Positions 16,574 to 36,679 of a stretch of DNA of 64,000 bases are shown piece after piece. The position numbers and the translations under genes were made by a program. The stretch covers positions 1 to 64,000 of IMG/VR virus record IMGVR_UViG_3300043395_001987; one strand, 5' to 3'. Origin of the DNA: an uncultured virus (IMG/VR IMGVR_UViG_3300043395_001987) (Duplodnaviria; Heunggongvirae; Uroviricota; Caudoviricetes). The notes beneath the pieces were generated by a model, which saw only the letters and a program-made list of their open reading frames with translations, did not search any database and had not been told where the DNA came from. How positions within the stretch are numbered: the first letter of the stretch is position 1; the number at the start of each line of letters is the position of its first letter.

Positions 16574-17122
16574 TTACCTACTATCAATCATTGATGCTAT
16601 ACCTCTCCAAGTTGTACCTCCATCATCAGTAACAAATGCAAGTATATCTACACCAGTTGAAAGTACAGGAGCAACAGCACTAGGCCATTTAACTGAAGCT
16701 GGCCATGTTATAGTATAACTTCCCGCTGCTGTTAATTCTAATATAAATGAATAAACTCTTGAAGAAGGTGGAGCGTTGGTAAAAGTAAATGCTGTGGTTG
16801 TTGAAATTGTCTTAGTAAAATAATTTGACAAAGCACAATTAACATTGTTTGTAGAAACTACAGAATATACCTGTGAAAAGTTACCAGTTAAATCTAAATT
16901 TGAAGTTGGTATAGCACTTGATGTACCAATACTAAGTGCTGTTATATTAACGTTAGACATAACAGCATTATTGGCTGGAGCCATAGGAAATCCTCCAACC
17001 TTGGCTCCATCATGAACCACTACAACATCTTTGGTAGTATCAATAGTTATTTCACCGACTGCTCCGGTAAAAGTGCTATGATCAGCTGTTGTTCCGCGTC
17101 TAAATTGTACTTGAGTTGCCAT
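16574..17122 (-). CDS. Fibre adaptor with an Mtd-N-like N-terminal domain
   Basis: MATQVQFRRGTT..H..FTGA.GE.T.DT.K...VVHDG...GG. C-terminal ITWP.SVKW...P.L...D...F.T.DGGTTW domain. Confidence 0.7.
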   Translation of the reverse strand: MATQVQFRRGTTADHSTFTGAVGEITIDTTKDVVVVHDGAKVGGFPMAPANNAVMSNVNITALSIGTSSAIPTSNLDLTGNFSQVYSVVSTNNVNCALSNYFTKTISTTTAFTFTNAPPSSRVYSFILELTAAGSYTITWPASVKWPSAVAPVLSTGVDILAFVTDDGGTTWRGIASMIDSR

Positions 17123-17143
17123 ATTTTTTACCTAATTTTATAA

Positions 17144-17151
17144 TATTTATG
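17144..17151 (-). promoter_or_regulatory. Late promoter-like CATAAATA
   Basis: NATAAATA about 22 bp upstream of the 17122 start. Confidence 0.45.
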
Positions 17152-17341
17152 TGAGAGATCCATAATCATAACTGGAGGTAACTGTACTAGTAGCACCAGT
17201 GATGGTCCCATAATCAACCTGCATAACGCCTGTAAAAGCATTATAGGTGATATTCCAGGAAGTTCCATCCCACGTCCAAGCCGTTAAGCCATTGGTGAAT
17301 GTATCATTAACAGCTGGGCTATCTGGAAAATTAATGGCCAT
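17147..17341 (-). CDS. Minimal 64-aa fibre linker protein
   Basis: MAINFP.SP...W.WDG..W N-terminal module plus two DYG motifs. RBS and late promoter upstream. Confidence 0.7.
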   Translation of the reverse strand: MAINFPDSPAVNDTFTNGLTAWTWDGTSWNITYNAFTGVMQVDYGTITGATSTVTSSYDYGSLT

Positions 17342-17359
17342 GATAAATTCCTTTTTTAA

Positions 17360-17367
17360 TATTTATA
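17360..17367 (-). promoter_or_regulatory. T4-type late promoter TATAAATA
   Basis: Exact consensus in the intergenic gap upstream of 17341. Confidence 0.75.
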
Positions 17368-17376
17368 TTTCAATTT

Positions 17377-19488
17377 TTATTGATCCGGCAATGGAAATTT
17401 AGGAACTCCAAAATTTGAAGTATATTTAGCATATAAACATATAGAAAATTGATCTATAAATCCATTCATGTAAGTAGAACTTGCATCATAACCAATGAAA
17501 GGTCCGTGTGTTATAGATGTATAATCATTTGTATCTGTATAACTAGAACCCCTTTGAATACCGTCTACAAATAATCTAGTAGTTCCTGATGATCTACAAA
17601 CAGCAAAATGATACCATTGACCTAGATTAGGATTAAATCCAGAGTCAATTCTGGTTGCACCATTTGAATAAAACTGAAATGTTGGAGTACTAGTTAAACC
17701 TACAAATAAAGTACCTGTTGAAAAGAATCTAGTACTTGCGGTTTTTGCAGAGAGATTAATCCAAAATTCAATTGTAAAATCACCTTTTCCAAATGCAAAA
17801 ACTGGATTTGCTATATTGTTTGTATGTGTTAAATTCAAATAACCATTTGTACCATTGAAAAATATAGTATTTGAACTAAATTTTTTATTAGTAGAAGAAA
17901 CTATAGCTCCTCCTAGAGTCCTTATGTTTGTTCTACTATTTGCATCATATATTTTTAAATTTGATCCATTTAATAAAAATATAGTATTATTATCACTAGT
18001 TGATGGTTTAGTAGGAAGTGTAAATGAAGGATTTGTATAACGAGCAATACCTTTTGATATTCTTAGATCTGAAATATATCCCTGAAATTTATTTGTTCCA
18101 TCAGTTGCATTATGACCTACTGCTGGTGTGGCAAGGCCTGGTGCTGTAGAATAATCTACTAATGAGGTTGTAGATGCTGAATTGCTTAAAATTCCATTAA
18201 TATATAATCTAATTACCCCATTTTTTCTTGTTACAGCAACATGTACCCACTGCTTTGGAGGAACTAATATTGATCCAGTATTGTGAAAAGTAGTTCCATC
18301 ATAAAATTCAAGAATATAGTTAGCTTTTAATCTAAAATAAAAATTTGATCCAAAAGTAAAAATTACTTGTTGTGTATTAGTTCTCGTAAATACCCAGGCC
18401 TCAACAGTAAAATCTCCTGTGCCCCAATAAACATCAAGGGTAGGCATTTGCAAATTATCACTAGTACCATCAAAATATATACTTCCACCTATATCAGTAT
18501 TAGAATATTGAGAAATTGATTTAGCAAAAGGAGAAAACGAAAAATTTTCTGGTCTATTACCACCATCAGAGAGTGTGGTGTTGCTTGTTCCTTTATCAAG
18601 ATTATTAATACCTGACATTACTAAAAATATAGTATTAGAATCTGCAGTTAAATTTGTTGTTGGAACTGAAAATGTATTACCTGAATATGCAGACGATCCC
18701 TTTATAATTCTAAGATTATTCATAAAACCTTTATAATTATAGTTAGAATATGAATGATATCCAATTAAATTCATCATGTTAAAATTTGTATTATTGAATG
18801 CAGATGCAACTTCTACACCATCTTTATACAATCTTAATGTATTTGATATTCTAGTAACGGCAACATGATACCATTTTGAAATAGTAATTGGAGTAGGATC
18901 AAAAATATAAGTACCTTGAGAACCCTGAACCCTATAACCAACAGCTAACCTATCTGCCCCATCAATAAACACCAAAAAAGCACGATCATTGACCCCTCCT
19001 GCAGGATCTGAGGAAACTATAGGATTTCCAAGAACACTTCCGCTCGCTGATCCTGTATTCTGAGGATATATCCAAACCTCAAATGAAAAATCTCCGGATC
19101 CAAGTGCAATATGATTAAAGGTAAAATAATTACCTCCTAGAAAAGCTCCATTAAAATAAGTTGACCAACCAAATGGGCTATAAGGACTAAATGCTCCTTG
19201 TGCTGCTAAACTAGCTCCTGTCTGAGTTATGGTAACATTTCTTGATGAGCTATCGTAAAAGGCATAATTATTAGATTTATTATCACCAATAGATTTTAAA
19301 AATAGTATATTAGAATTAGATGGTACAACATTATTCAAATTATAATGAACACTGTAATCAGATGGCCATGTGTTACCAATTCTCTGGCTTCTTTCAACAT
19401 CTTTAAGGTTCCACATTCCACTGGCTGAATATTCACCAATGCTTGTGTTTACACCAAGATATCCACCATTTGGTCTAGTTCTTGCCAT
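17377..19488 (-). CDS. LamG/concanavalin A-like lectin protein (three domains)
   Basis: Three GDF(T/S).E.W...W.H.A..R......L(Y/F)..G...GY(I/M)...R units. Confidence 0.85.
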   Translation of the reverse strand: MARTRPNGGYLGVNTSIGEYSASGMWNLKDVERSQRIGNTWPSDYSVHYNLNNVVPSNSNILFLKSIGDNKSNNYAFYDSSSRNVTITQTGASLAAQGAFSPYSPFGWSTYFNGAFLGGNYFTFNHIALGSGDFSFEVWIYPQNTGSASGSVLGNPIVSSDPAGGVNDRAFLVFIDGADRLAVGYRVQGSQGTYIFDPTPITISKWYHVAVTRISNTLRLYKDGVEVASAFNNTNFNMMNLIGYHSYSNYNYKGFMNNLRIIKGSSAYSGNTFSVPTTNLTADSNTIFLVMSGINNLDKGTSNTTLSDGGNRPENFSFSPFAKSISQYSNTDIGGSIYFDGTSDNLQMPTLDVYWGTGDFTVEAWVFTRTNTQQVIFTFGSNFYFRLKANYILEFYDGTTFHNTGSILVPPKQWVHVAVTRKNGVIRLYINGILSNSASTTSLVDYSTAPGLATPAVGHNATDGTNKFQGYISDLRISKGIARYTNPSFTLPTKPSTSDNNTIFLLNGSNLKIYDANSRTNIRTLGGAIVSSTNKKFSSNTIFFNGTNGYLNLTHTNNIANPVFAFGKGDFTIEFWINLSAKTASTRFFSTGTLFVGLTSTPTFQFYSNGATRIDSGFNPNLGQWYHFAVCRSSGTTRLFVDGIQRGSSYTDTNDYTSITHGPFIGYDASSTYMNGFIDQFSICLYAKYTSNFGVPKFPLPDQ

Positions 19489-19489
19489 T

Positions 19490-21580
19490 TTATCTCACAT
19501 TGAATGCGTTTGCGGGTACAGGGAAAGTAGCTGTATATCTAGCTGCTCTTGTTACTCTAACATCATCTAAATAACCGGTAAATTTTTGTGTTGTATCCAA
19601 CAGGGCACCAACTGAGAATCCACCTTGTCCGTAGTTAGTTGTATCTGCTGCTGAACTTACAAGAGCTCCATTTTTAAAACCATATACCGTCGAGCCTGAT
19701 CTACTTACTGCCACGTGTGTCCATGTGTTAGAAGGAATTGTATCAGTAAAAGTAACGTTAGTACCAATACCAGAAAGTCCAATTGAAAAAGTAGTGCTAT
19801 TAAATTGTAAGAAAAATCCACCTGTACCTAAATTAAATAAACAAACTTGAGTTACAGACTGAGTAAAAGTTGGATATACCCACATTTCAACAGTAAAATC
19901 ACCAGTACCGAAATTTAACATTGGATTACTTATACCAGTTATTTGTCTTGAAGTACCATCAAAATAATAGCTGCCTTTACCAAATTTCTTTTGAGACTGA
20001 GAAATAGAAGCTGATCCCAATGTCTTTAAATTATTTTTACCTGTTTTATCAACAACACCGCCATTAGTTCCTTTTATATGCAAAACAGCATCACTATCTG
20101 TAGTTAGAGGTGATGAAGGAGGTGTAAAATCTGTTGTATATAATGCTCGACCTTTGATATATCTTATATCATACATATGACCTGTTACATAAGTAGTTCC
20201 CGCGGGATCCTTACCTGAAGTATATCTTAAATTATTTGTATAATTAAATGTATCAGAATAAGTACTTCCTACCTGAGTACCATTTACAAAAAGTTTAGTT
20301 GCGTTTGATATTTTACAAGCTGCAACATGATACCACTGCTGATAAAGTGCAGCATAAAGGCCACCAGGTGAAGTAATTCTATCAGCTGCAATCCCAGTAT
20401 CAGCAGCATAAGCAAAATTAGAACCATTATGGTAAACAATAATTCTATTGCCACTGCCTGTAGGATCAGTTAAATCAAACCAATCTTGCCTATTACCAGT
20501 ACCAGCTAAAGTTGGATATGTCCAAAATTCGATTGTGAAATCATCATTTGCAGTAAACAAAAGTGCAGAAGATCCAATATTACTTTGCAAATAATCTGTA
20601 CTTCCATTAAAATATATACTTCCACCATATGAAGTGTTACTATAAGTATCTGATGGATAAAAAGGTGAGAATGGCTGTACTGATAATGTGGAACCAGAGC
20701 TAGGTGTTACTGTATATTGATTTGATGAACTATCTTTAAATCTATTATCTTTACATGTTAAAAATAATGTATTACTTACAGATGAAAGTGGTCTAGTTGG
20801 TGGAGTAAAATTACTTGTGTATAAAGCAGTACCCACTACAAATCTAATATTAGAAGCCCATCCAGTATAATACAAATTAGGTGTCTGATTAGCTCCTATT
20901 CTAGGAGTAGAAAATGCAGTATATGTAGTATTATCCGTAGCTGTGGTGGCTTCAGCTACACCATTAATATAAAGAGTTGCTGTGCTTGAACCACTTGAAG
21001 ATTTTACCAATGCAAAATGATACCATTGATAAGGAGTCAACGTAGTATTACCACCAACTATTGTAGCACTATTGTTTATTCTTCCTTGTATTTTACTACT
21101 AACTATTCTCAATTCTATTGTTTGAGTTGCATTATAAAGCTTTACTAGAGGTATTTCAGCCGCTGAAACAGTCGTAGGAAAAAACCAACCTTCTAGTGTA
21201 TAGGAATTATTACCAACAGCTGTCATGTTGGTAGGAAGTGTTAAGTAGTCTGATGATCCACCAAAATAATTTGACCAACCAGTAGGGCTGAAAGGACTAA
21301 AAGATCCTTGCAGTGGTGAACCATTAACATTTATACTATATAAATTTGAGTATGTTGAATCATTTACATAGATTGTATTATTAACAAATTCACCTTCTTC
21401 ACCATTTAATAATAAAACAGTGTTGTTAAAGGAAGTATCTCTGAGTGTTGTATCTACAGGCCATGTTTGACCTGACATACCTGTTATAACACTATTTAAA
21501 GACCAAACCCCGTTAATTGAGTTGGTATTCAAAGTGTTAATACTACCCGACAATCCACCGTCGAGTTTGGTTCTAGGCAT
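19490..21580 (-). CDS. LamG/concanavalin A-like lectin protein (three domains), paralogue of 17377-19488
   Basis: Same domain layout and the same FSP(F/Y)SP.GWS.YF and GGSIYF.G linkers. Start moved to MPRTK at 21580 (TAATG overlap with the upstream stop). Confidence 0.85.
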   Translation of the reverse strand: MPRTKLDGGLSGSINTLNTNSINGVWSLNSVITGMSGQTWPVDTTLRDTSFNNTVLLLNGEEGEFVNNTIYVNDSTYSNLYSINVNGSPLQGSFSPFSPTGWSNYFGGSSDYLTLPTNMTAVGNNSYTLEGWFFPTTVSAAEIPLVKLYNATQTIELRIVSSKIQGRINNSATIVGGNTTLTPYQWYHFALVKSSSGSSTATLYINGVAEATTATDNTTYTAFSTPRIGANQTPNLYYTGWASNIRFVVGTALYTSNFTPPTRPLSSVSNTLFLTCKDNRFKDSSSNQYTVTPSSGSTLSVQPFSPFYPSDTYSNTSYGGSIYFNGSTDYLQSNIGSSALLFTANDDFTIEFWTYPTLAGTGNRQDWFDLTDPTGSGNRIIVYHNGSNFAYAADTGIAADRITSPGGLYAALYQQWYHVAACKISNATKLFVNGTQVGSTYSDTFNYTNNLRYTSGKDPAGTTYVTGHMYDIRYIKGRALYTTDFTPPSSPLTTDSDAVLHIKGTNGGVVDKTGKNNLKTLGSASISQSQKKFGKGSYYFDGTSRQITGISNPMLNFGTGDFTVEMWVYPTFTQSVTQVCLFNLGTGGFFLQFNSTTFSIGLSGIGTNVTFTDTIPSNTWTHVAVSRSGSTVYGFKNGALVSSAADTTNYGQGGFSVGALLDTTQKFTGYLDDVRVTRAARYTATFPVPANAFNVR

Positions 21581-21936
21581 TAGCTTATTTGCTCCCAACT
21601 ACAAATAGCCTGCAATGCAGCATTAGCTGATGCAGTGAGTTGGATTGAAGAATTTTCAAGTATATAAAAAGTAGTATCTTTACCAACAACAGTAAGTGCA
21701 GAGTTTGCAGGTACAACAACGTTTTTAACAACAGATGTGTTAGAACCATTAACATTCAATTCAACAGTTACTGAATAAGGGTTTGCATTTATATTAGCAA
21801 CGTTGATAGAATTGATTTTATAAATTGTATTAGTACCTGTAGCATTCTGAACTATATTTGCAGTCGTCGTAGAGACGTTCATATATGCTGTGTTACCAAA
21901 AATACTAGTGATGTTTACTATATTTGGGTTTGCCAT
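21580..21936 (-). CDS. Small virion structural/adaptor protein
   Basis: MANPNIVN.TSI.G.T...KIN.I.VAN...VPA...L......Y..E......A......SWEQI, a beta-rich domain common in phage fibre loci. Confidence 0.65.
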   Translation of the reverse strand: MANPNIVNITSIFGNTAYMNVSTTTANIVQNATGTNTIYKINSINVANINANPYSVTVELNVNGSNTSVVKNVVVPANSALTVVGKDTTFYILENSSIQLTASANAALQAICSWEQIS

Positions 21937-21943: not shown

Positions 21944-22516
21944 TTATCCTCCAAAAATTATATTCATGGCAATAGATTTGCCTAGTGAAATTCCACCCGA
22001 TGAACCTGTAAATCCAATTGATCCTGTGAACCCGGCGGGATCACCTTTGGATCCGGTATAACCAACAGGAGATCCTTGTGATCCAGTATAACCGCGAGGA
22101 CCTGGTTGTGTTGCAATGTCTACCCACTGTTCTGATGTACTATCATTATAATAAATTTTTAATGTTGCTGTATTACTATTAAACCAAAGATATCCTTGAG
22201 CTGCTGCACCCGGTACAGTATCAGAAACCGTAACTGAAGCACCTCCTCCACCACCAGTTCCACCAACACCCGCTGATCCTGTATAACCCCTTAAACCCTG
22301 ATCACCTTGCGAACCAGTATAACCAGGAGTAGTGCTGACTGGGCCTATTTCTCCCTGTGAGCCAGTATAACCCAAATCACCCTTTGATCCGGAGTAACCA
22401 ATAGTTGTAGATGAAGCACGCCAATATCCGCCGCCAGAACTAGACCAAATCCAAGTTCTGTCTCCTACTGAATACGATTGCCCTTCAACAGGACTATTAG
22501 GAAAATTTATAGCCAT
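21944..22516 (-). CDS. Collagen-like adaptor fibre
   Basis: MAINFP N-terminal module, GYTGSx repeats, internal S.T.P...G.LWFNS...L.IYY.D...QWV module, C-terminal GKSIAM.IIFG. Confidence 0.7.
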   Translation of the reverse strand: MAINFPNSPVEGQSYSVGDRTWIWSSSGGGYWRASSTTIGYSGSKGDLGYTGSQGEIGPVSTTPGYTGSQGDQGLRGYTGSAGVGGTGGGGGASVTVSDTVPGAAAQGYLWFNSNTATLKIYYNDSTSEQWVDIATQPGPRGYTGSQGSPVGYTGSKGDPAGFTGSIGFTGSSGGISLGKSIAMNIIFGG

Positions 22517-22536: not shown

Positions 22537-22544
22537 TATTTATT
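22537..22544 (-). promoter_or_regulatory. Late promoter-like AATAAATA
   Basis: NATAAATA about 21 bp upstream of the 22516 start. Confidence 0.45.
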
Positions 22545-23386
22545 CAATATGCTTGGGTATTAGTATTAGGAAATGTTCTAGTATTATTAAGTCCCCATAT
22601 TATTCTTACAACACCATTTGCACCATATCCCGGTACTTGTACATACCATCCACCTCTACCACCTCCTCCTCCATATAACCCACCTGGTCCACCTACACCA
22701 TTGTTTCTAGTTACACCATCTGCACCAGATGAACCTGATTTTCCACCTTCACCACCGGAACCAGGACCTTGGTTACCGCCTCTCCCACCCGCACCAGCAT
22801 TACCTTGACCATATATTCCTACACCACCACCACCGCCGCCATCTTCAAACCAACCATTACCATTATGCAACATTGCAGCACCACCGCCACCAGAACCACC
22901 AGAACCGGGATTGCCATTTGCGGTTAGACCATTACCACCATCACCCCCATTGCCATTATACCCACCAGCACCTCCTGCTCCTGAAATGCCGGTTCCTCCA
23001 CTTCCGCCTCCTGTTCCAGCCCATCCACCACCACTTGCAGGATTATAATTACCAGAAATACCTCCGCTGCCTCTTACAGTGGATGTACTAAAAAAGAAAC
23101 TGTTAGTTGCATTAGCTGAAGGAGTCTGTCCTCCTAAACCCACGGATAAATTATAGGTATTACCTGGTACTACGGAAATATTGTTTCTCCATCCTAAACC
23201 ACCACCACCTCCGCTTCTAGAAGCAGCACCTGTACCACATCCTCCTCCGCCTATACAAAGAACTGTTACATTATAAACACCCGGTGGACATGTCCATATA
23301 TAATCACCTGGTGTTGTATACAAAGATTCACCTGGCTCACTATTATACTTTGCATTAGTGCCTATTACTGAATTAACAATAGACAT
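22544..23386 (-). CDS. Glycine-rich adhesin-like protein
   Basis: TPG.Y.WTCP.GV..V.VLCIGGGG...GGGGGLGW.NNI.V.PG, many Gly runs, ending G..G.VRIIWG..R.FP. Confidence 0.75.
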   Translation of the reverse strand: MSIVNSVIGTNAKYNSEPGESLYTTPGDYIWTCPPGVYNVTVLCIGGGGCGTGAASRSGGGGGLGWRNNISVVPGNTYNLSVGLGGQTPSANATNSFFFSTSTVRGSGGISGNYNPASGGGWAGTGGGSGGTGISGAGGAGGYNGNGGDGGNGLTANGNPGSGGSGGGGAAMLHNGNGWFEDGGGGGGVGIYGQGNAGAGGRGGNQGPGSGGEGGKSGSSGADGVTRNNGVGGPGGLYGGGGGRGGWYVQVPGYGANGVVRIIWGLNNTRTFPNTNTQAY

Positions 23387-25044
23387 TAGAATAGATTTCC
23401 ACTTATTGTAAATGTATTAGAATATTGAACACATATAATAGTAGCTAAACCTCTTTGTAATAATGTTCTATTACCTGTATTTGCAGTACCTGCCCAATAC
23501 ATTGTTGTACCAGTATTAGCAATAATAGTAATATTTGCACTAGTATTATTGAATATTGTACAGTTAAATCCTGTAAGAACAACATCACTATTAATTGTAA
23601 CATTACTAGTGGTGGATAATAAAGAACCATTATCACCATTTGCAATAACATATGAAGTAGATTTTTCATATACAGGAAGATCAGTTGTTCCTCGTGAACC
23701 AGTGTATCCTACAGGTCCTAAAAATCCATGTGATGATATTTCTACCCATTGTGAACTATCACCATCACTAGTATAAACTAATTCAATACCATAATCAGAA
23801 TTAAACCATCTATCACCATCTAATGGACTTGGAGGTGCAGTATTAGCAATTGTATATGCTCCTCCTGATCCATTCAATCCTCTTGAACCCGTATAACCTA
23901 TAGAACCGGTAAAGCCAGTACCACCAGAACCCGTGAATCCAACAGAACCAGTGTAACCAGCTCCTGTAGATCCAGTAAAACCAACTGAACCAGTATATCC
24001 TATAGAACCTGTAAAACCAACTGAACCTGTATAACCGACCGAGCCTGTAAACCCAATCGAGCCAGTAAAACCAACTGAACCCGTATATCCTATAGAACCC
24101 TGTGAACCAGCATACCCAGTAACAGTTGAAGAATAAACAACACCAGCATTATACAAACCTGCAGCTTTGGCATGAGCTAATATTCTAGCATCTGAAAGTT
24201 TAGACCCACTATAATAAACCGTATGTGATCTAATGTTGGGAGATTGACCATCTGTAGTTGGATTATAACCAATACCAAATGTAGTTGATGTACCGCCTGT
24301 TGGTTCATTTACATATGAAGCAGTTGCGACCTTTATTCCATTTAAATACACTGTTAAGGTTTTCGCTGTACTATCTTTTACAACTACAAAATGATTGGGA
24401 ACACCGTTTACAACCCATGCATCTAATGAAGTTAATTGATCTGTACCATTACCATATTCCCAGAATATAGCAATTTGACCAGTATTTTGAATTCTAATAA
24501 TAAACTGATAATTTACTGGTGCAGTTTCTCCAGTCGCACCAATATTGGCTACATAGATTGGATTAGTTCCATTTAAATTAGGTATTAAAACAGTTTCCCA
24601 AGTCCAGTCACCAGTTATAGGAGCTGAAAGCCCCATCAACGATGATGAGGCAGCTCCTGCAGTAGTACTTGAAAATAATATACCATTAGCACTTGTATTG
24701 GAAGGATAAACAGGACCAAATGCTTGAGTATATGTACCACTTAATGTCAAATTGCCAGCAGGTGCATACGAACCATAGTTAATTACACTACCAGCTACTT
24801 CGTTAAATTTATACCAGAGATAAGGTGTATCTATAGAAATTTCTTGATCTAGAGAATTTACACCTACAATATATCCTGGTATACCCTGTGAACCTGTATA
24901 ACCTATATCACCTTTTGATCCAGTGAAACCAATTGCAAGTGTGTTGGCTTGCCATAATCCATAGTTATTTGCCCAGTACCAAGTCTGGTTTCCATATGTG
25001 TATATTTGATTATTAGATGGATTGCTAGGAAAATTAATTGCCAT
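23386..25044 (-). CDS. Collagen-like fibre with a LamG domain
   Basis: MAINFP module, LamG-like domain, GYTGS/GFTGS repeats, GDRW..SD.G...QWV module, C-terminal GNRTL domain. Confidence 0.75.
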   Translation of the reverse strand: MAINFPSNPSNNQIYTYGNQTWYWANNYGLWQANTLAIGFTGSKGDIGYTGSQGIPGYIVGVNSLDQEISIDTPYLWYKFNEVAGSVINYGSYAPAGNLTLSGTYTQAFGPVYPSNTSANGILFSSTTAGAASSSLMGLSAPITGDWTWETVLIPNLNGTNPIYVANIGATGETAPVNYQFIIRIQNTGQIAIFWEYGNGTDQLTSLDAWVVNGVPNHFVVVKDSTAKTLTVYLNGIKVATASYVNEPTGGTSTTFGIGYNPTTDGQSPNIRSHTVYYSGSKLSDARILAHAKAAGLYNAGVVYSSTVTGYAGSQGSIGYTGSVGFTGSIGFTGSVGYTGSVGFTGSIGYTGSVGFTGSTGAGYTGSVGFTGSGGTGFTGSIGYTGSRGLNGSGGAYTIANTAPPSPLDGDRWFNSDYGIELVYTSDGDSSQWVEISSHGFLGPVGYTGSRGTTDLPVYEKSTSYVIANGDNGSLLSTTSNVTINSDVVLTGFNCTIFNNTSANITIIANTGTTMYWAGTANTGNRTLLQRGLATIICVQYSNTFTISGNLF

Positions 25045-25047: not shown

Positions 25048-30012
<4,965 letters not shown>

Positions 30013-30042: not shown

Positions 30043-30246
30043 TTAATTATCTAAAGATTCGTTTTTCTTTGTTTTGGAATTTGCTTTATCTAAAGCTTTT
30101 TGTAATTCCTCAACTTTACTATTTAGGTTTGTATTTTGCTTCTCATAAAAAGCAATCTGAGCTGATTGCAAGATATTACTCTTGGTCAGCTCAGTTACCA
30201 TATTCGTTAATTTTTCCACGTAGATATTATATAACTCAGGACCCAT
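30043..30246 (-). CDS. Small coiled-coil protein
   Basis: 67 aa heptad-rich ORF fitting exactly between two fibre genes on the same strand. Confidence 0.65.
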   Translation of the reverse strand: MGPELYNIYVEKLTNMVTELTKSNILQSAQIAFYEKQNTNLNSKVEELQKALDKANSKTKKNESLDN

Positions 30247-30264: not shown

Positions 30265-31848
30265 TCAGAATGAACCGCCGTCTAATGATCCATAATAGAG
30301 GTTAGTACCATCTGATTGTAGAACATATCCAGCAGCCCCAGCAGTTAATTTCTGAAGACCTGATGTTGTATTACCAACAAGTAAATCACCATCAGTGTAT
30401 GTCTTAAATCCAGTACCACCTGATCCATATCCAAGAGCAGTTGAAAGAGTCAAGGTATTAGCCTGAATAGCAACTGTTAGTGAATTTGTACCAGTAATAT
30501 TAAGTGCTGTTGAATTAGAAACTAATGCACCTGAATCTAAGTATGCTTTAAGAGTAGCTTGATGATATGAACCATCTCCAGTATCAACGAATGTTGTAGG
30601 TGTTACTGTTAATCCATCAAATAACTTATAAACACCATCTGATGCATCACGGAAGAAGCCAGTATGTTCATGACCACCACCGTTATTATTATAGTTACCA
30701 AAGAAACCAATATCAATAAGGTCTGTTTGAGTATTGTTAGCAGCAAGTTGAATTAACGGATCAGTTACAATGTAAGATTCGACGTTTGAGAATACTGCAT
30801 TACCAGTAATATGTAAGTCACCACCAATATAGAAGTCATGATAAACTGTGCCAGTGTTAGCAATAAAATTACTATTTACTGAAAGATTATGAATTTCAAT
30901 TGTGTTAGCAGATGATGTTATATAAGATGAACTATCAGAACCAAGTCTTAGTTGAGTAAACCAACCAGTATTATAAACTGCTCCAACAGAACCGATATCA
31001 AATGAATTATCTGAGGTTGGAATTACAGTACCATAAAGACTACCGTTGAGAGTAACTCTATCTTGAATTGCATCACCAAGAACAACATTACCGTTGAGTG
31101 TAGTTTGGCCATTTACTGTTAATGAATCAAATGTTTGAGTAACAGAAGGATTAATATGTACGCCTGTACTATTTGATACAAGACCTGTACCTGCAACTAC
31201 TGCAATTGTTGGTGTTGAAGATTCACCAGTACCACCAGTTACTGATGTACCATTACCTGCCGTGATACTTTGGACATAATCACCATCTGTATCAACACCA
31301 AGTGTTACACCGTTTGCATTGGTAATTGTAACATTAAGTGTTGCATCACCTAGATTATTAAATGTAACGTTACCAGTTGCATCACCAGAAAGGGTAAGTT
31401 TTGGTGAACGGTTGATTGTAGTTACAAATAGATTTTCAATAGTTGTGTTGGCAGCTGAAAGATAAAGATTACCAGAGAGTGTTCTGGAATCTGTATTTTG
31501 AACAAATGAAGGTCCGGCTGCAGCTGTTGTTGACCAGAATAATTTACCAGATCCATCTACTGCAAGAACGGAACCCGATGGACCATAAGAACCATTTGCA
31601 GAAAGACTGTCAATAGTTGCATTGGCTGTTTTGATTTGATTGAGCCAACCAGTACTGTTTGCAACAAGTGCTTGGTTAGCTGTAAGAATACCAGGATTTC
31701 TTTCACCTGCGATAGGTAAAACAGAACCGAAATTACCGATATAAACGACATTACCAGAGGCTGTAAATGCCAATTCACCATTGGCCAGCGACCCCGGCTG
31801 TGCTGTGGTTTGTGAACGTTTAATTTGTAATAAATTTGGGGACGCCAT
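30265..31848 (-). CDS. Tail fibre protein
   Basis: LQIKRS...P.SL..GELA N-terminal domain. DIGF.GNY...H.GFFRD domain shared with 25048-30012. C-terminal LDGGSF. Confidence 0.75.
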   Translation of the reverse strand: MASPNLLQIKRSQTTAQPGSLANGELAFTASGNVVYIGNFGSVLPIAGERNPGILTANQALVANSTGWLNQIKTANATIDSLSANGSYGPSGSVLAVDGSGKLFWSTTAAAGPSFVQNTDSRTLSGNLYLSAANTTIENLFVTTINRSPKLTLSGDATGNVTFNNLGDATLNVTITNANGVTLGVDTDGDYVQSITAGNGTSVTGGTGESSTPTIAVVAGTGLVSNSTGVHINPSVTQTFDSLTVNGQTTLNGNVVLGDAIQDRVTLNGSLYGTVIPTSDNSFDIGSVGAVYNTGWFTQLRLGSDSSSYITSSANTIEIHNLSVNSNFIANTGTVYHDFYIGGDLHITGNAVFSNVESYIVTDPLIQLAANNTQTDLIDIGFFGNYNNNGGGHEHTGFFRDASDGVYKLFDGLTVTPTTFVDTGDGSYHQATLKAYLDSGALVSNSTALNITGTNSLTVAIQANTLTLSTALGYGSGGTGFKTYTDGDLLVGNTTSGLQKLTAGAAGYVLQSDGTNLYYGSLDGGSF

Positions 31849-32261
31849 TAAAAGTCTCCTCCGTCGAGTGTTTGATTTGAAATTTCAAGTGGTAGTATTG
31901 TATATTTATCAGATTCGGACACGTAAGTCAAAATATATCCATTCGCCGGCATACCCACTACAACATCATCTAAACCTGCTAATGTACTTGATCCTCTTGA
32001 ACCCGTATATCCAAAAGAGCCAGTATATCCCTGAGACCCGGTATAACCCTGTGAACCTGTGTATCCAAATTCACCTTGGGAGCCCTGATAACCTACGGAA
32101 CCTCGATATCCGGTCTCACCTCGAGAACCTTGATAACCAACTGATCCCTGAAACCCAACAGTGCCCACGTTTTGCCAACGTGAGCCATCCCATCTCCAGG
32201 TTTTGCCGCCGGTGACTACTTCATCACCAATTTGCGGACTGTTAGGAAAAACTAATGCCAT
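31848..32261 (-). CDS. Short collagen-like linker protein
   Basis: MALVFP.SP..GD...GKTW.WDG.RW module, collagen tract, L..L.DV, C-terminal LDGGDF. Confidence 0.7.
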   Translation of the reverse strand: MALVFPNSPQIGDEVVTGGKTWRWDGSRWQNVGTVGFQGSVGYQGSRGETGYRGSVGYQGSQGEFGYTGSQGYTGSQGYTGSFGYTGSRGSSTLAGLDDVVVGMPANGYILTYVSESDKYTILPLEISNQTLDGGDF

Positions 32262-32282
32262 CTATTCTTTACCATTTTATAT

Positions 32283-32290
32283 TATTTATT
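32283..32290 (-). promoter_or_regulatory. Late promoter-like AATAAATA
   Basis: NATAAATA in the intergenic gap about 22 bp upstream of the 32261 start. Confidence 0.45.
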
Positions 32291-32305
32291 TCTTGTAAAA
32301 ACATA

Positions 32306-35300
32306 TCAGTTACGTATAAATCTGCCAGTAAATCTTGGTTGTGAAGCAGTTGGTGTATTATCAGTTAATTGTGAACCTGCAGCTGCATTTTGATAAACAA
32401 ACAATTCAAAATAATCACTAGCAGAAGCATAAACAATTTCTGATATTGTTACTGCAACTGAAGTACCATATGCTGGTATTTTCATACCATTTCTTAGAGC
32501 TGATCCATTTTTATAAATTGCAATACTTACAGTACCAGTATTACTATTAGTTAAACCTGAGAAAGATACATGGCCTTCTAAATGATAATAACCTGTTTGT
32601 TGTGGTGTGAATGAACTACTAGCAACCTCAGCATTTAAATCGTAATCAGTTGTATTAAATGTTACTTTAGTCCAGTTGTTATTAGCAATTGATTGTTGAG
32701 TAGTTTTTCTTAAACCGAAATTAGATCCTGTAACTACTGCTTGTGATCCTGTATATCCTATTGCACCTTGTGAACCAACATAACCTACGGATCCAACATA
32801 ACCTTCAGAACCAACATACCCTGCATCACCCACTGAACCTGTGAATCCAAGTGAACCAGAATATCCTATATCACCTTGTGAGCCAACATAGCCTGAACCA
32901 ATAGATCCAGTGAATCCCGCTGAACCAGTTGATCCGGTAAACCCTGTTGACCCTGTAAATCCTGCACCTGTGGAACCAGTATATCCAAGAGAACCTGCAG
33001 GTCCTTGAGGTCCTGTCAAACCAATTGAACCTTGTGATCCTGTGTATCCGTTAGTACCTGCTGAGCCTGTATATCCGCCTGCAGGACCAGCAGAACCAGT
33101 GAATCCCATTTCACCAGGAGGTCCACCTGCGGTAATACCTAACCATACTTGTTCAGGTTCATAATAGATACTCAATATACCTGTATTAGAATCTAACCAT
33201 AACAGCCCATCCCACTGTATAGCTGGTGTTGTATCACTAACAATAACGTTAGCTATACCTTCAGAACCAACATAACCAACTTCACCTTGTGAACCAGTGT
33301 AACCGAGTGATCCTGTAAATCCTATACCTCTAGACCCAGTAAATCCTTTATCACCTTGTGAACCTACAAATCCTGTGTCTCCACGTGATCCTGTATAACC
33401 AATAGATCCAGTGTAACCTAAATCACCTCTAGAACCGACATAGCCTTGAGATCCATCATAACCTGCACCTGTCGATCCTGTAAATCCTTGATCACCTTGA
33501 GAACCCGCATACCCTACATCACCTTGTGAACCAACATAACCAGCACCGGTAGAACCAGTATAACCTAAATCCCCCTGTGATCCCGTATATCCCAAATCAC
33601 CTTGTGATCCAGAATATCCTAATGATCCCGAATAACCTATTTCACCCTGTGATCCTGCATAACCTACAGAACCTGTATATCCTATTGATCCAGTATATCC
33701 AATAGAACCAGTATAACCATAACCCCCTTGTGAACCTACAGAACCAACATAACCTGCATCACCTCTATCACCAATTCTTGCTAAAGTAAGAACTGAAATG
33801 GTTGCATCTGGAATCGATGAATCACCAGATAAGAATGAAATAGGAACAGTTGAATATGTTGAGTTATCAATTGGACTATTAATGATTGCAAATAAAGCAT
33901 AATTATTTGTGTTGGTACTTGAGGTAATCTTAAAGTGACCTTTAATACCTGAAGTAGAAGCACCAATAACTAGAAGAGAATTGAATATGTAAGTTAAATC
34001 AAGTGCATTTTTATTAATATAAAGAGTATTAGCATTATTAAAAGTAGTATTGCTAAATCTTAAAGTACCTGTACCAGGATCTGCTGCTTCAGTGTTTGCA
34101 CTAAAATAGAATAGATAATTATAACCAGCAAATTGACCAGGTTGGCCTTCTATACCTTGAGAACCAGTAAATCCTCTATCACCTTGAGATCCAGTGTAGC
34201 CAATAGAACCAGTATATCCTAGATCACCTTGAGAACCTACGTAGCCTTCTGAACCAACATATCCAGCACCCGTTGAACCAGTATAGCCGAGATCACCTAC
34301 TGATCCAGTAAATCCTATATCACCTTGTGGTCCAGCTGGGCCTGTATCGCCCTGTGATCCAGTAAATCCTTGATCACCCTGAGAACCTACATAACCAGCC
34401 CCCTGAGAACCTGTATAACCTAAATCACCTTGTGAACCAACATAGCCTTCAGAACCAGTAAATCCTGTTCCCTGTGATCCAGTATAACCTAAAACCCCTT
34501 GTATACCCTGTGATCCTGTGTATCCCAAAGAACCAGAGTAACCTAATGAACCTGAATATCCAAGAGGTCCAATATTACCCTGTATACCTTGATCACCTTT
34601 AGAACCCGTAAAGCCCTCTGATCCTGTATATCCTATAGATCCTGTATAACCAAAGGAACCAGTATATCCCAGATCACCATAAGATCCAGTATAACCAATA
34701 TCCCCTTTAGAACCTGTATAACCAAAAGAGCCAGTATATCCTATTGATCCTGTATAGCCAATAGAACCAGTGTAACCTAAATCACCATAAGAACCTGTAT
34801 AACCAATATCACCCTTAGAACCAGTATATCCTATTGATCCTGTATAACCAATAGATCCAGTATAGCCTCTTACACCCTGATCACCTTGAGAACCAGTGAA
34901 TCCTAGTGAACCAACATATCCTGTAGAACCAGTATAACCTAAAGATCCTGTGTAACCAAAAGAACCCGTATATCCTAATGAACCAGCATAACCTGTTATT
35001 CCTTGGTCACCTTTGGAACCAGTAAAGCCTGTTGAACCCAAATAACCCGCTGAGCCAGTATAACCGGTGTCACCAATATCACCAGTACGAGCAAAAGTTA
35101 GAACAACATTAGATTCATTAGTATAGTCAGAATTGCCTGAAACAAAGCTTACTGGAACAATAAAGTAGTTGCTAATAAATTGATGTTCACCTATAATATT
35201 AAATATAGATGATTTACCTACTTCATCCAAGCTATTGATAGAAAATTGACCTTTAATAGCTGATGTTGAGTCATCAATTGTTTGTAAGAATGAGTATGTT

Positions 35301-36679
35301 GAATCATAGAATATATCATTCTCATTAATAAACATCTTTGTAACAGATGTATAGGTATTACTATCAAACTTATAATGACCTGCACCCGGATCTGTATTTG
35401 ATGTATTTGCACTAAATTTATAATTAAATGATGCACCACCAAAGTTACCTGTTGTACCTTGTGGACCTTGAACACCTCTAGAACCCGCGTAACCTATAAT
35501 ACCTTGTGAACCTACAAAACCTGAAGAGCCAGTATAACCTTGCGATCCACCATAACCAGTTGCACCACGTGAACCTTGATAACCTTCAGATCCTCTATAA
35601 CCAGTTTCACCTTGGGTAGTACCAAAATATCTTACTTCAATCTCAGCACCATTTTGAGGTGCATATGCCAGTGTTAGTTCTGTTCCAGCTACTGTATAAT
35701 CAACAGTAGGTGTTTCTAAAATACCATTAACAAAAACAAAGATATGATTAGGATCAGAGGTAGAATCTGATAAAGTAAATTGTGTATTGCTTCCGTTAGC
35801 AATATAACGAGATGATTTATATGGTCGACCTGCGCCTTCAGAACCAGTATAACCAATACCTATAGATCCTGTATAACCTATAGAACCGGTATAGCCGTCT
35901 TGACCACCTGAAGGTCCTTGTGGTCCAACTGCACCCACTGAACCCTGATAACCTGTAAGACCTAACGAACCCTGATATCCAACTGAACCGGTATAACCTA
36001 CAGAACCTTCTGATCCTTGATAACCTGGTGATCCTATTGTAATATCAAAATATCTTACCTCAATCTCAGCATTAAGAGGAGGTGCGTTATTAAAAGTAAT
36101 TGTTGTTCCTGATACTGAATAATCAACATCAGGACTTTCAAGAATACCGTTTGTAAATACTAAAATATGGTTAGCATTGGCAGTATTTTCAGCTAAAGTA
36201 AATACAGTATTGCTGCCATTTCCTGTATATCTAGATGAACTAGAAGGTTTACCTACGAGGCCTGCAGAACCTGTATATCCAGCACCTCTTGAACCTGTGA
36301 AACCTAAGGAACCAGCATAACCTTGTGCGCCACCTGGATCACCTGCAGGTCCTTTATCACCAACTGATCCTGAATAACCTATAGAACCTGAATAACCAGT
36401 ACTGCCTTGAGATCCTGAATAGCCAACATTACCTGCCGAACCGGTATAACCAACACCATCGTTTTCAATATATCTTATTTCAATATCAGTAGAATTAAAT
36501 GGGGTTGACGCTAAATTTATTGTGTTACTATTGACAATAACATAGTCAACATCTGGAATTTGTACAAGACCGTTGACAATAACAAGGATGCTATTGGCTG
36601 AGTTTACTGTCTGTAAAAGTGGGTAGGAATTAGCCGTTCCGTTGGCAGATATTTGTTGACTATTAAAAACCAGAGACAT
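32306..36679 (-). CDS. Long collagen-like fibre (1457 aa) with a C1q/TNF-like C-terminal head
   Basis: Three N-terminal (V/T)NG..(Q/E).P..DY...IE(I/V)RY repeats, very long G-[YF]-[TSV]-G-S-x tracts, C-terminal QSI...W.KV.F....D.....FTP..TGYY domain. Confidence 0.8.
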   Translation of the reverse strand: MSLVFNSQQISANGTANSYPLLQTVNSANSILVIVNGLVQIPDVDYVIVNSNTINLASTPFNSTDIEIRYIENDGVGYTGSAGNVGYSGSQGSTGYSGSIGYSGSVGDKGPAGDPGGAQGYAGSLGFTGSRGAGYTGSAGLVGKPSSSSRYTGNGSNTVFTLAENTANANHILVFTNGILESPDVDYSVSGTTITFNNAPPLNAEIEVRYFDITIGSPGYQGSEGSVGYTGSVGYQGSLGLTGYQGSVGAVGPQGPSGGQDGYTGSIGYTGSIGIGYTGSEGAGRPYKSSRYIANGSNTQFTLSDSTSDPNHIFVFVNGILETPTVDYTVAGTELTLAYAPQNGAEIEVRYFGTTQGETGYRGSEGYQGSRGATGYGGSQGYTGSSGFVGSQGIIGYAGSRGVQGPQGTTGNFGGASFNYKFSANTSNTDPGAGHYKFDSNTYTSVTKMFINENDIFYDSTYSFLQTIDDSTSAIKGQFSINSLDEVGKSSIFNIIGEHQFISNYFIVPVSFVSGNSDYTNESNVVLTFARTGDIGDTGYTGSAGYLGSTGFTGSKGDQGITGYAGSLGYTGSFGYTGSLGYTGSTGYVGSLGFTGSQGDQGVRGYTGSIGYTGSIGYTGSKGDIGYTGSYGDLGYTGSIGYTGSIGYTGSFGYTGSKGDIGYTGSYGDLGYTGSFGYTGSIGYTGSEGFTGSKGDQGIQGNIGPLGYSGSLGYSGSLGYTGSQGIQGVLGYTGSQGTGFTGSEGYVGSQGDLGYTGSQGAGYVGSQGDQGFTGSQGDTGPAGPQGDIGFTGSVGDLGYTGSTGAGYVGSEGYVGSQGDLGYTGSIGYTGSQGDRGFTGSQGIEGQPGQFAGYNYLFYFSANTEAADPGTGTLRFSNTTFNNANTLYINKNALDLTYIFNSLLVIGASTSGIKGHFKITSSTNTNNYALFAIINSPIDNSTYSTVPISFLSGDSSIPDATISVLTLARIGDRGDAGYVGSVGSQGGYGYTGSIGYTGSIGYTGSVGYAGSQGEIGYSGSLGYSGSQGDLGYTGSQGDLGYTGSTGAGYVGSQGDVGYAGSQGDQGFTGSTGAGYDGSQGYVGSRGDLGYTGSIGYTGSRGDTGFVGSQGDKGFTGSRGIGFTGSLGYTGSQGEVGYVGSEGIANVIVSDTTPAIQWDGLLWLDSNTGILSIYYEPEQVWLGITAGGPPGEMGFTGSAGPAGGYTGSAGTNGYTGSQGSIGLTGPQGPAGSLGYTGSTGAGFTGSTGFTGSTGSAGFTGSIGSGYVGSQGDIGYSGSLGFTGSVGDAGYVGSEGYVGSVGYVGSQGAIGYTGSQAVVTGSNFGLRKTTQQSIANNNWTKVTFNTTDYDLNAEVASSSFTPQQTGYYHLEGHVSFSGLTNSNTGTVSIAIYKNGSALRNGMKIPAYGTSVAVTISEIVYASASDYFELFVYQNAAAGSQLTDNTPTASQPRFTGRFIRN
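32740..35610 (-). repeat. Degenerate 18-bp coding tandem repeats (collagen-like hexapeptide G-[FY]-T-G-S-x)
   Basis: Dozens of GAACC(A/T)GT(A/G)TA(A/T)CC-like units. Similar tracts at about 5690-6000, 22000-22400, 23880-24120, 25880-26050, 28080-29740 and 31990-32160. Confidence 0.9.

Follow-up and report, generated by a model that had tools for sequence, protein, structure and literature searches.

A tail-to-head motif pair in consecutive fibre genes of an uncultured phage looks like a widespread joint of multi-protein fibres

The DNA analysed here, referred to as the window, is a stretch of 64,000 nucleotides of a 76-kb contig from an uncultured member of the Caudoviricetes (IMG/VR record IMGVR_UViG_3300043395_001987). 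A series of genes on the minus strand (Table 1) probably constitutes the fibre module of this virus, a divergent T4-like myovirus. Megablast of this 21-kb region against cultured phages gave no match and the nearest gp6 homologue was 38.5% identical; therefore, no close cultured relative could be used for comparison. Two further fibre genes of the window lie outside the series and are listed at the end of Table 1.

Table 1. Genes of the fibre region and position of their motifs (all positions refer to the window; residues are those of the protein)
Gene product	Position	Strand	Motifs	Matches or basis
1457-aa collagen-rich fibre protein	32306..36679	-	S, residues 1143-1187 (33119-33253)	Collagen E 1.5e-91; Phage_T7_tail E 7.5e-13; HMM (S)
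137-aa adaptor: P, short collagen stretch, tail	31848..32261	-	P (32154-32261); tail LDGGDF, within last 12 residues (31851-31886)	Collagen E 2.7e-10
527-aa fibre 1: M-like N-terminal domain, tail	30265..31848	-	M-like (31705-31848); C-terminal tail LDGGSF (30268-30285)	motif/HMM
67-aa Lys-rich protein, between fibre 1 and fibre 2	30043..30246	-		
1654-aa fibre 2: M-like N-terminus, collagen stretches, S	25048..30012	-	M-like (29869-30012); S, residues 1385-1432 (25717-25860)	Pfam, HMM
552-aa protein: P, concanavalin/LamG-like domain, collagen, S	23386..25044	-	P (24937-25044); S, residues 396-441 (23722-23859)	Pfam, HMM
280-aa glycine-rich protein	22544..23386	-		phrog_4474 E 1.2e-44
190-aa protein: P, collagen-like stretch, S	21944..22516	-	P (22409-22516); S, residues 93-139 (22100-22240)	Pfam, HMM
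118-aa protein	21580-21936	-		
702-aa protein, three LamG-type domains	19490-21598	-		Laminin_G_3 E 2.6e-43
703-aa protein, three LamG-type domains	17377-19488	-		Laminin_G_3 E 3.5e-58
64-aa adaptor: P, tail	17147..17341	-	P (17234-17341); tail DYGSLT (17150-17167)	motif/HMM
182-aa distal tip protein: Mtd_N, tail-fibre tip domain	16574..17122	-	Mtd_N, residues 5-40 (17003-17110)	PF18454 E 1.2e-14; phrog_9017 tail fiber
168-aa tail-fibre assembly chaperone	16081..16587	-		PF16778 Phage_tail_APC E 2.1e-16
Further fibre gene, same tip family	5125-6156			
Further fibre gene, gp37-like C-terminus	40039-41697			

The collagen repeat (PF01391) passed its cut-off in the 1457- and 137-aa proteins, in the 1654-aa protein (E 4.4e-51) and in the 552-aa protein (E 1.2e-11); the 190-aa protein fell just under it (26.6 versus 27.2 bits). 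The 1457-aa protein also passes for the N-terminal domain of the T7 tail fibre (PF03906; 48.9 bits, gathering score 25.2, residues 288-352), and inspection of its sequence revealed two more repeats of this kind near residues 10-71 and 150-215, three in all. The 168-aa protein is a tail-fibre assembly chaperone (59.9 bits, cut-off 26.6), encoded directly after the tip gene, the end of which it overlaps by 14 bases. Matches of the 702- and 703-aa proteins in PHROG are to families of baseplate wedge proteins and of virion structural proteins. The 280-aa protein scored under the cut-off of Gly_rich_2, and a 264-aa counterpart occupies the same place in L002, a related contig. The 67-aa protein matched no family above cut-off in Pfam or PHROG; it may form a coiled coil, as judged from its sequence, and a gene of about 70 aa stands at this position in many related loci.

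An earlier note on this DNA had read eight of these genes as a daisy chain held together by two pairings: an internal module, S, followed by a protein starting with a module P (pairing A), and a short C-terminal tail followed by a protein starting with a module M (pairing B). P is defined by the start MA(IN/LV)FP.(S/N)P...W.W and M by the start x-Q-(I/F)-(K/R)-R. Every motif was found in the proteins named there: P at the start of the 137-, 552-, 190- and 64-aa proteins, S inside the 1457-, 1654-, 552- and 190-aa proteins (located by HMM), M at the start of the 527-, 1654- and 182-aa proteins, and a tail at the end of the 137-, 527- and 64-aa proteins. Searches with HMMs of these copies revealed no additional P, S, M or tail in the six-frame ORFs of the window and of the whole 76-kb contig, which thus contains four N-terminal P, four internal S, three N-terminal M and three C-terminal tails. 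The order of the motifs along the eight genes was also as described, but the chain is unbroken only in part: of the 13 genes that span 36679 to 16574, five were skipped (those of the 67-, 280-, 118-, 702- and 703-aa proteins), and only four links join truly adjacent genes (32306>31848, 31848>30265, 25048>23386 and 17147>16574, genes being named by their first position). The order of 14 genes, these 13 and the chaperone gene, was shuffled in 200,000 permutations. Strict alternation of S and P occurred in 3.3% of the shuffled orders, an M gene among the two genes after every tail in 1.2%, and both together in 0.034%.

Taken with the comparisons described below, these observations are probably best explained by a multi-protein, collagen-rich fibre in which tails join heads of the Mtd_N type and which carries a P/S signature. 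All the proteins may belong to a single structure. They might instead form several separate fibres, for example one made of the 1457-, 137- and 527-aa proteins (with or without the 1654-aa protein), a unit around the 552- and 190-aa proteins, and a small tip complex of the 64- and 182-aa proteins attached at another place. The five skipped genes, those of the LamG-rich 702- and 703-aa proteins among them, would then encode parts of the baseplate or of the fibres themselves. This is a real possibility, if not the one we would choose: it accommodates the five genes devoid of either motif, the baseplate and structural matches of the LamG-rich proteins, the scarcity of directly adjacent links and the presence of other fibre genes in the window; the balanced, strictly alternating set of S and P modules speaks against it. 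The same balance was observed in L002, where the order S, Pc, Mc,., MS, PS,.,., PS is kept with proteins of different sizes and where a fourth P gene lies further downstream, so that this contig also contains four P and four S.

Pairing A is a significant and directional gene-order rule in the kind of gene-adjacency check that the earlier note had proposed. As for pairing B below, the loci share descent, which clustering at 40% identity corrects only roughly, and their gene calls are crude. An S gene was present at 5 kb or less upstream in 44 of 58 P clusters, compared with 9 of 46 downstream (p 1.3e-8), and the nearest S was upstream in 21 P clusters and downstream in two (p 6.6e-5). Counted gene by gene around unique P genes, an S-bearing gene occupied position -1, -2 or -3 in 29/100, 19/95 and 17/91 cases, and position +1 or +2 in 6/88 and 3/75 cases. 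S was the only element common to the very different proteins encoded upstream of P genes; no conserved C-terminal motif was detected in the proteins directly upstream, many of which are encoded by small chaperone-like genes.

P and S had been proposed to fit each other as a plug fits a socket. The structural models do not agree with complementary shapes: both modules adopt the same small fold, a Pro-rich loop followed by a three-stranded beta-meander (pLDDT 85.7 for P and 93.1 for S), and are therefore not a distinct plug and socket. Their best structural neighbours are also shared, namely the C-terminus of CBA120 TSP3, the trimerisation domains of collagen XV/XVIII and a PhiKZ capsid chain, all with Z of 5 or less. 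Comparison of the two profiles gave weak matches in the same register (P values 6e-4 and 2e-3). By their length (35-48 residues), Pro-rich lead and beta-hairpin or meander, P and S resemble small trimerisation domains such as collagen XV/XVIII NC1 and the T4 fibritin foldon. Common descent would call for Z scores much higher than those with collagen XV/XVIII, which are 4.7 and 4.2 for S and 2.9 and 3.0 for P. No significant match to the PDB was obtained by sequence search with either profile, nor, at E 0.001 or better, by Foldseek with the S model; phmmer with the 190-aa protein aligned P to a foldon tag without significance and otherwise returned collagen chains alone.

Two more specific assignments were considered and abandoned. 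Homology of P and S to the foldon was dropped: hhalign aligned both with the T4 wac C-terminal domain, sharing one P-x-x-P-x-x-G register, but weakly (P value 0.017 for S and 0.008 for P), and fibritin was absent among the structural neighbours listed for either module. A general role as collagen registration domains was rejected since a minority of the modules have collagen beside them (28 of 110 S modules; for P, 30 of 113 proteins).

The likeness of P and S leaves room for another reading of pairing A, in which the two are homologous small trimerisation modules placed at the start of fibre proteins or inside them and do not dock. S would then precede P because large proximal subunits are encoded before smaller distal ones, and P proteins would attach by another surface or to the baseplate; pairing B might still be a true joint. 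We consider this reading possible but less likely. Besides the shared topology, neighbours and register, it is consistent with the 26 of 101 P proteins that have an S of their own, with the 11 of 34 P clusters that have no S within 5 kb despite sequence on both sides, and with tandem arrays of S (five in one L037 protein), which fit poorly with one socket per plug. Against it stand the strong direction of the S-then-P order, the fact that S, in place of any C-terminal motif, is what the diverse upstream proteins share, and the existence of mini-proteins of 64-74 aa made of nothing but P and a tail, which must anchor somewhere.

The 64- and 137-aa proteins, described previously as little more than a plug and a socket, contain P and a tail, that is two plugs in the terms then used, and they are P + tail adaptors. 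In other loci, all 12 unique P proteins with a tail (73-462 aa) were encoded directly before an M gene, and in 10 of the 12 cases an S protein directly preceded them. The data support a recurrent role of small P + tail proteins as adaptors that link S proteins to M proteins.

Pairing B, in which the gene after a tail starts with M, is a genuine rule and a widespread one. A start codon directly preceded M in 212 of 214 cases (related loci and our contig), which places M at the extreme N-terminus; the exceptions were the remaining two, with no start codon nearby, and two others deep in long ORFs, and no fused form, with a tail running into M in one ORF, was seen among the exceptions inspected. 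Direct pairs, in which a gene ending in [D/N][G/A]Gx[F/Y] is followed by an M start, numbered 74 after removal of redundancy. The upstream proteins of these pairs are mutually unrelated, made of coiled coils, hairpin modules or other fibre modules, and share only the tail, of which the last six residues or so are kept. In the IMG/VR loci, where gene calls are crude (greedy choice of the longest ORF), a DGG-type tail was encoded at position -1 in 65 of 91 M-start clusters and at -1 or -2 in 82, leaving nine exceptions, and conversely 122 of 140 unique tail-bearing genes had an M gene among the next two. A tail was rarer at position +1 of the M gene (11/153; baseline 18/1275 other unique genes). 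Tail type also co-varied with head subtype (Fisher p 8.5e-7): KR(S/T)-type heads came with 69 aromatic and seven other tails, RR(G/D)-type heads with three aromatic and 10 other tails.

The rule extends to cultured phages, in which seven of the 10 Mtd_N genes examined come after a protein ending in D/N-phi-G-x-phi(A/T). It is obeyed by bbp9 before mtd in the Bordetella phage BPP-1, by gp063 before gp064 in HTVC008M and by gp40 before gp41 in the T7-like S-TIP37; CRP-3 (gp31/gp30) is another cultured carrier, whereas S-CAM3, S-SSM7 and one gene of Vibrio K437b are exceptions. Its range in cultured phages also comprises T4-like cyanophages and a gut phage. Inheritance of one old gene cassette, with motifs that make no contact, is a very improbable source of these adjacencies: many loci are kin and clustering at 40% identity corrects the counts for descent only roughly, but the upstream proteins are unrelated except for their last residues, the cultured phages concerned are very different, tail and head types co-vary, and a complex model places the tail on the head. 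In the window itself the partner of the 1654-aa head is ambiguous because the 67-aa gene is the direct upstream neighbour of fibre 2.

The complex was predicted with three copies of the N-terminal 110 residues of the 527-aa protein and three copies of the C-terminal 46 residues of the 137-aa protein, a cognate pair of the kind for which the earlier note had proposed multimer modelling. The score was 0.84 (0.84, 0.83 and 0.85 in separate runs), compared with 0.62 for the best control, an unrelated one of 45 aa. This is a narrow pass (margin +0.22, required +0.20), the pass mark being one attained by 116 of 157 solved complexes and two of 215 mismatched pairs, in a calibration that does not span 3+3 predictions with custom alignments. 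The runs agreed in at least 97% of contacts, with a partner pLDDT of at least 91. In the model, residues 35-46 of the 137-aa fragment contact residues 2-13, 15, 18-19, 22 and 27 of the 527-aa protein; the last 12 residues of the tail are thus predicted to lie on the first strand of M, and the modelled interface is exactly that of tail against M.

The head of the 182-aa tip is a bona fide Mtd_N domain (54.4 bits, cut-off 26.3), and its residues 1-49 match the Mtd chains of PDB 1yu0-1yu4 (E about 6e-16). The heads of the 527- and 1654-aa proteins gave no Pfam match to Mtd_N at E 0.01 or better; 11 of 36 relatives had sub-threshold matches (best E 0.0015), and hhalign of this type of head with the 182-aa protein gave a P value of 0.13, the register being the same. 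An HMM started from the three heads of the window collects both subtypes, in what is a circular search. A PDB sequence search with the profile of IQIKRS heads identified no significant solved relative. From their sequences, these two heads may only be called Mtd_N-like.

We propose that the fibre subunits would be joined non-covalently, with a gene order that largely tracks the order of assembly. At the joint of pairing B, a well-supported type, the last 12 or so residues of one trimer, ending in phi-D-G-G-x-F or D-phi-G-x-phi-(T/A), would sit on the first beta-strand of the Mtd_N-type head of a trimer encoded one or two genes further on, in an end-to-end 3+3 geometry. The aromatic tails LDGGDF and LDGGSF would pair with the 527- and 1654-aa heads, which are of the IQIKR(S/T) type, and the DYGSLT tail with the canonical QFRRG head of the 182-aa tip, so that two coexisting cognate subtypes could keep the joints orthogonal within one virion. 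In pairing A, P-headed genes lie downstream of S-bearing ones, and the 64- and 137-aa adaptors would attach an M-headed protein to one that bears S. The analysis itself shows the motifs, the statistics of their order, the co-variation of subtypes, the monomer folds and a complex model for pairing B; from these we infer binding of the parts in the virion, docking of P on S and branching. The modular fibre system envisaged in the earlier note, together with pairing B and the direction of pairing A, is thus retained, whereas the complementarity of P and S is not, and the five intervening genes have to be taken into account.

The recurrence of the motif pairs in consecutive genes far beyond this genome supports a modular fibre system, and one pair, tail and M, looks like a widespread snap-together joint by which long fibres would be assembled from several proteins in many phages. 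A broader proposal can be made only tentatively: many phage families may share a small code of orthogonal connectors, in which tails fit cognate subtypes of Mtd_N-type heads, P seats on S and mini-adaptors of 64-140 aa translate between joints. Fibres would then be extended, branched or given new tips by gene swaps, and in uncultured phages the order of the genes would reveal both the architecture and the true receptor-binding tip. Fibres of several proteins, and systems with adaptors or branches, are known, though from just a few model phages. A short tail-to-head signature, which holds in a gut phage, in marine myo- and podoviruses and in BPP-1, would help annotators of metagenomic phages to group fibre genes that belong to one assembly; it would point to the receptor-binding protein at the distal end, in this case the 182-aa tip, which has its chaperone, and suggest where tips are exchangeable between laboratory phages. 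The chained connector motifs are a variant, itself new, of the known principle of the multi-protein fibre; no description of the tail motif or of the P/S rule was found in the literature searched.

The long tail fibre of T4 consists of several proteins joined end to end (gp34-gp35-gp36-gp37), encoded by consecutive genes in the order of assembly, with a chaperone gene after that of the distal tip. The system described here resembles it in its proposed end-to-end proteins, consecutive genes and chaperone after the tip. It differs by its proposed joints, short motifs at the protein ends that are met again in phages of no close kinship, and by its collagen-like shafts. No family of gp34-gp37 was present among the Pfam or PHROG matches of the chain proteins; a gp37-like C-terminus occurs only in one of the separate fibre genes (Table 1).

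A second likeness is with anchor-branch complexes (CBA120 TSP1-4, G7C, Klebsiella phages of the KP32 type, RaK2/phiK64-1), in which, in the portions of the published accounts consulted, docking sites receive the conserved N-termini of other proteins and small N-terminal peptides serve as plugs; tips of receptor-binding proteins able to connect to other such proteins are mentioned in the consulted part of one account (PMC12143355). As described in those portions, these systems use branching domains of the T4 gp10 type. In the chain proteins, no Pfam family of T4 gp10-like docking domains was detected at E 0.01 or better, and the likeness of S to residues 1-335 of CBA120 TSP4 was not significant (Foldseek E 0.89).

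The closest parallel for the tip is Mtd of BPP-1, which is found at the tips of the tail fibres and of which the N-terminal prism is, in the sections consulted, the presumed site of attachment (PMC2408619, PMC10743442). The literature searched yielded no partner motif on the fibre side. These sections describe the attachment only as presumed; pairing B offers a concrete and testable answer to how proteins of the Mtd type attach to fibres. Unlike Mtd, the 182-aa tip has no C-type lectin variable domain and is not accompanied here by a diversity-generating retroelement, and the heads of the 527- and 1654-aa proteins, being under the Pfam threshold, are at most Mtd_N-like. Like Mtd, the 182-aa tip opens with a canonical Mtd_N domain, and the upstream fibre gene of BPP-1, bbp9, ends in a tail of the same type, D-phi-G-x-phi-A.

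The fibre genes of this contig are best explained, on a modest balance of probability, by a multi-subunit fibre system whose subunits would be joined through short terminal signatures and whose gene order would follow fibre assembly. Two joints are considered: in joint A, a gene with an internal module (S) is followed downstream by a gene whose product starts with an MA(IN/LV)FP module (P), and in joint B, a C-terminal motif (the tail) is followed, in the next gene, by an N-terminal Q-(I/F)-(K/R)-R domain (M). Joint B is probably physical. Joint A is a real gene-order rule, for which direct P-S docking is a tentative candidate for the physical basis.

HMMs built from the window copies recovered all four motif classes at the genes named in the earlier note (4 P, 4 S, 3 M and 3 tails, LDGGDF, LDGGSF and DYGSLT), and detected no extra copy anywhere else in the full contig, window included. 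The chain of eight proteins that had been drawn there without a break holds in its motif logic, but it passes over 5 of 13 genes (67, 280, 118, 702 and 703 aa) and only four of its links are between immediate neighbours. When the order of 14 genes (these 13 and the chaperone gene) was shuffled 200,000 times, strict S/P alternation was obtained in 3.3% of the orders, an M within two genes of every tail in 1.2%, and both together in 0.034%. The eight proteins may form several fibres or, alternatively, one branched structure.

The contig of origin is 76 kb long, and the window covers its bases 1-64000. T4-type baseplate and tail families were matched by genes lying between about 40 and 61 kb of the window, no cultured phage exceeded 38.5% identity to the gp6-like wedge protein, and the fibre region gave no megablast match to cultured phages; together these sequence comparisons point to an uncultured, divergent T4-like myovirus. 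Most genes of the fibre cluster (Table) could be assigned with Pfam and PHROGs. The Pfam collagen triple-helix model was passed by four proteins (1457, 137, 1654 and 552 aa), the 190-aa protein scoring slightly below the cut-off. The 1457-aa protein carries a T7-tail-fibre N-terminal domain, and LamG-type domains are present in the 552-, 702- and 703-aa proteins. The 182-aa protein contains a canonical Mtd_N domain (E 1.2e-14; Mtd in the PDB, E about 6e-16) and also belongs to a tail-fibre tip family, and PF16778 identifies the 168-aa protein as a fibre assembly chaperone.

Table. Fibre-related features of the window and of one relative; single numbers are the gene positions that identify proteins of the chain
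Position	Strand	Feature
36679 to 16081	-	14 genes head to tail, spacing -19 to +44 bases
32306-36679	-	1457-aa protein
31848	-	137-aa adaptor
30265	-	527-aa protein, fibre 1
30043-30246	-	Lys-rich gene between the two M-headed fibre genes
25048-30012	-	1654-aa protein, fibre 2
17147	-	64-aa adaptor
16574	-	182-aa tip
11409-16079	-	1556-aa protein built from RCC1-like beta-propeller repeats (PF25390, E 1.6e-180), encoded immediately downstream of the fibre chaperone gene
8842-9552 and 9556-11346	-	2OG-Fe(II) oxygenase-like gene and methyltransferase-like gene
5125-6156	-	343-aa collagen-like fibre protein outside the chain; C-terminal tip in the same PHROG families as the 182-aa tip (phrog_9017, phrog_34656); no P, S, M or tail motif
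36743-39529	+	928-aa multi-domain glycosyltransferase-like protein, directly beside the collagen-like fibre genes
39729-41697	-	552-aa protein with gp37-like distal fibre C-terminus, then 108-aa L-shaped tail fibre assembly family protein; second, conventional fibre set adjoining the chain
L037:412-1308	+	304-aa protein, P at its start, then five tandem S modules

Joint B was analysed in IMG/VR loci retrieved with the M-type N-terminus (L081-L160), by reading the protein encoded just upstream. For nearly all upstream proteins the C-terminal residues are (L/I/M)DGGxF or a near match to it, while the remainder of these proteins varies widely. A start codon directly precedes 212 of 214 M-type domains, which places these at the extreme N-terminus of their proteins. 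It is missing for the remaining two, and the exceptions that were inspected showed no fusion of a tail to M. In 74 non-redundant direct pairs, one gene ends in [D/N][G/A]Gx[F/Y] and a stop and the next opens with an M start. Gene calls were crude and clusters were formed at 40% identity; on this basis, a DGG-type tail was present in gene -1 in 65/91 clusters and in gene -1 or -2 in 82/91, compared with only 11/153 at +1 and a baseline of 18/1275 other unique genes. In the reverse direction, an M gene lies within the next two genes for 122 of the 140 unique genes that bear a tail; 16 have none there and 2 run off the locus.

The gene -2 cases mostly correspond to the four-gene cassette of the window, in which a tail-bearing adaptor is followed by fibre 1 (M head and tail), a Lys-rich gene of about 70 aa and the M-headed fibre 2. 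Recurrence of this cassette supports the link previously proposed from fibre 1 to fibre 2 across the 67-aa gene, although the fibre 2 head may in fact meet another protein. The Lys-rich gene is conserved at this position in L081-L084, L002, L088, L093-L098, L109 and L116; in many relatives, but not in the window (..NESLDN), its product has a D/S-x-F end, and it could either assist assembly or itself be what the fibre 2 head binds. In some podovirus-like loci (L111, L138, L139, L144, L145), the DGG tail of a small adaptor is immediately preceded by an S-like hairpin (GD.WY...L.VYRE....W.PI); the two signatures can thus lie no more than about 40 residues apart.

A tblastn search with the 182-aa head returned 57 phage records, from which 11 regions were fetched; the Phosso region was set aside because its upstream gene lies on the other strand. 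In 7 of the remaining 10, the upstream protein ends in D/N-phi-G-x-phi(A/T), like DYGSLT: BPP-1 (bbp9 before mtd), HTVC008M (gp063 before gp064), S-TIP37 (gp40 before gp41), CRP-3, Pseudomonas AH02, Vibrio 1.021.A and a Syntrophomonadaceae gut phage. This tail was absent in S-CAM3, S-SSM7 and one K437b gene. Tail type co-varied with head subtype: among unique pairs, KR(S/T)-type heads had 69 aromatic DGGx(F/Y) tails and 7 others, compared with 3 and 10 for RR(G/D)-type heads (Fisher p 8.5e-7, not corrected for descent). Both subtypes coexist in the window, where they would keep the joints from cross-reacting.

An N-terminal fragment of the 527-aa protein (110 residues) and a C-terminal fragment of the 137-aa protein (46 residues) were folded as a 3+3 complex, each with a 36-row alignment. 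The score was 0.84 (runs 0.84, 0.83 and 0.85) and the best control, an unrelated one, reached 0.62, a narrow margin. This mark was attained by 116/157 solved complexes and 2/215 mismatched pairs, in a calibration that excludes 3+3 complexes with custom alignments. The runs had at least 97% of contacts in common, with partner pLDDT of at least 91. The predicted interface involves the final 12 residues of the tail fragment (35-46), LDGGDF included, and head residues 2-13, 15, 18-19, 22 and 27, including the NLLQIKRS strand. Sequence searches returned no solved relative of the 527-aa head, which makes it unlikely that the predictor merely reproduced a known structure. The complex prediction supports tail-M binding.

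T4 gp34-37 form an end-to-end multi-protein fibre. Anchor-branch complexes likewise make the multi-protein fibre an already known principle. The N-terminal prism of Mtd is presumed to be its attachment site (PMC2408619, PMC10743442). Within the literature searched, which comprised sources outside subscription journals and supplements, neither the tail motif nor its co-variation with head subtype was found described, nor were the rule on P/S order and the mini-adaptors made of P and a tail.

For joint A, more than 429 relatives of the N-terminal pattern MA[IL][NV]FP[NSD][SN] were confirmed in IMG/VR, and P begins at the start methionine in 112/130 matches. S-bearing genes lie upstream of unique P genes in 29/100 cases at -1, 19/95 at -2 and 17/91 at -3, and downstream in 6/88 at +1 and 3/75 at +2; 26/101 P proteins carry their own S. 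By P cluster, an S gene is found within 5 kb upstream in 44/58 and downstream in 9/46 (p 1.3e-8). Among clusters with 5 kb of sequence on both sides, 21 have their nearest S upstream and 2 downstream, and 11 have none within that distance. Where the -1 gene lacks S, it is in many cases a small chaperone-like gene, and no common C-terminal motif was found in the proteins encoded before P. Small P+tail proteins recur, with an M gene next in 12/12 unique cases and an S protein before in 10/12. In the relative L002, the order S, P+tail, M+tail, one gene without motif, M+S, P+S, two genes without motif, P+S is kept despite different protein sizes, and the same contig has a fourth P gene beyond this series, on its downstream side.

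AlphaFold2 monomer models gave an extended Pro-rich lead and three strands for P (36 aa, pLDDT 85.7), and one extra strand, a Pro-rich loop and three strands for S (48 aa, pLDDT 93.1). Their best PDB neighbours are common to both (CBA120 TSP3 C-terminus, collagen XV/XVIII trimerisation domains and a PhiKZ capsid chain), all with Z of 5 or less, too low for relatedness; Foldseek returned nothing significant. Profile comparison of P with S was weak (P 6e-4 and 2e-3), as was that of P or S with the T4 foldon (0.008-0.017), the same P-x-x-P-x-x-G register being aligned in both. Collagen adjoins only about a quarter of the modules. The tandem array in L037 indicates that S can serve as a repeated shaft unit. 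From the models, the shared neighbours and such arrays, P and S appear to be variants of a single small trimerisation-domain-type module rather than a plug and a differently shaped socket.

The 1457- and 1654-aa proteins have additional long modules in common. A non-collagen block of about 130 aa, lying between collagen stretches, occurs twice in the former and once in the latter, and the 527-aa protein also has their short G-x-x-G-Q-(V/I)-L-x-S-x-G repeats, including just before its tail. The fibre repeats are rich in G-S-K-G-D units, with Lys at the Y position, and the collagen-like shafts might conceivably be modified, glycosyltransferase-, oxygenase- and methyltransferase-like genes being nearby.
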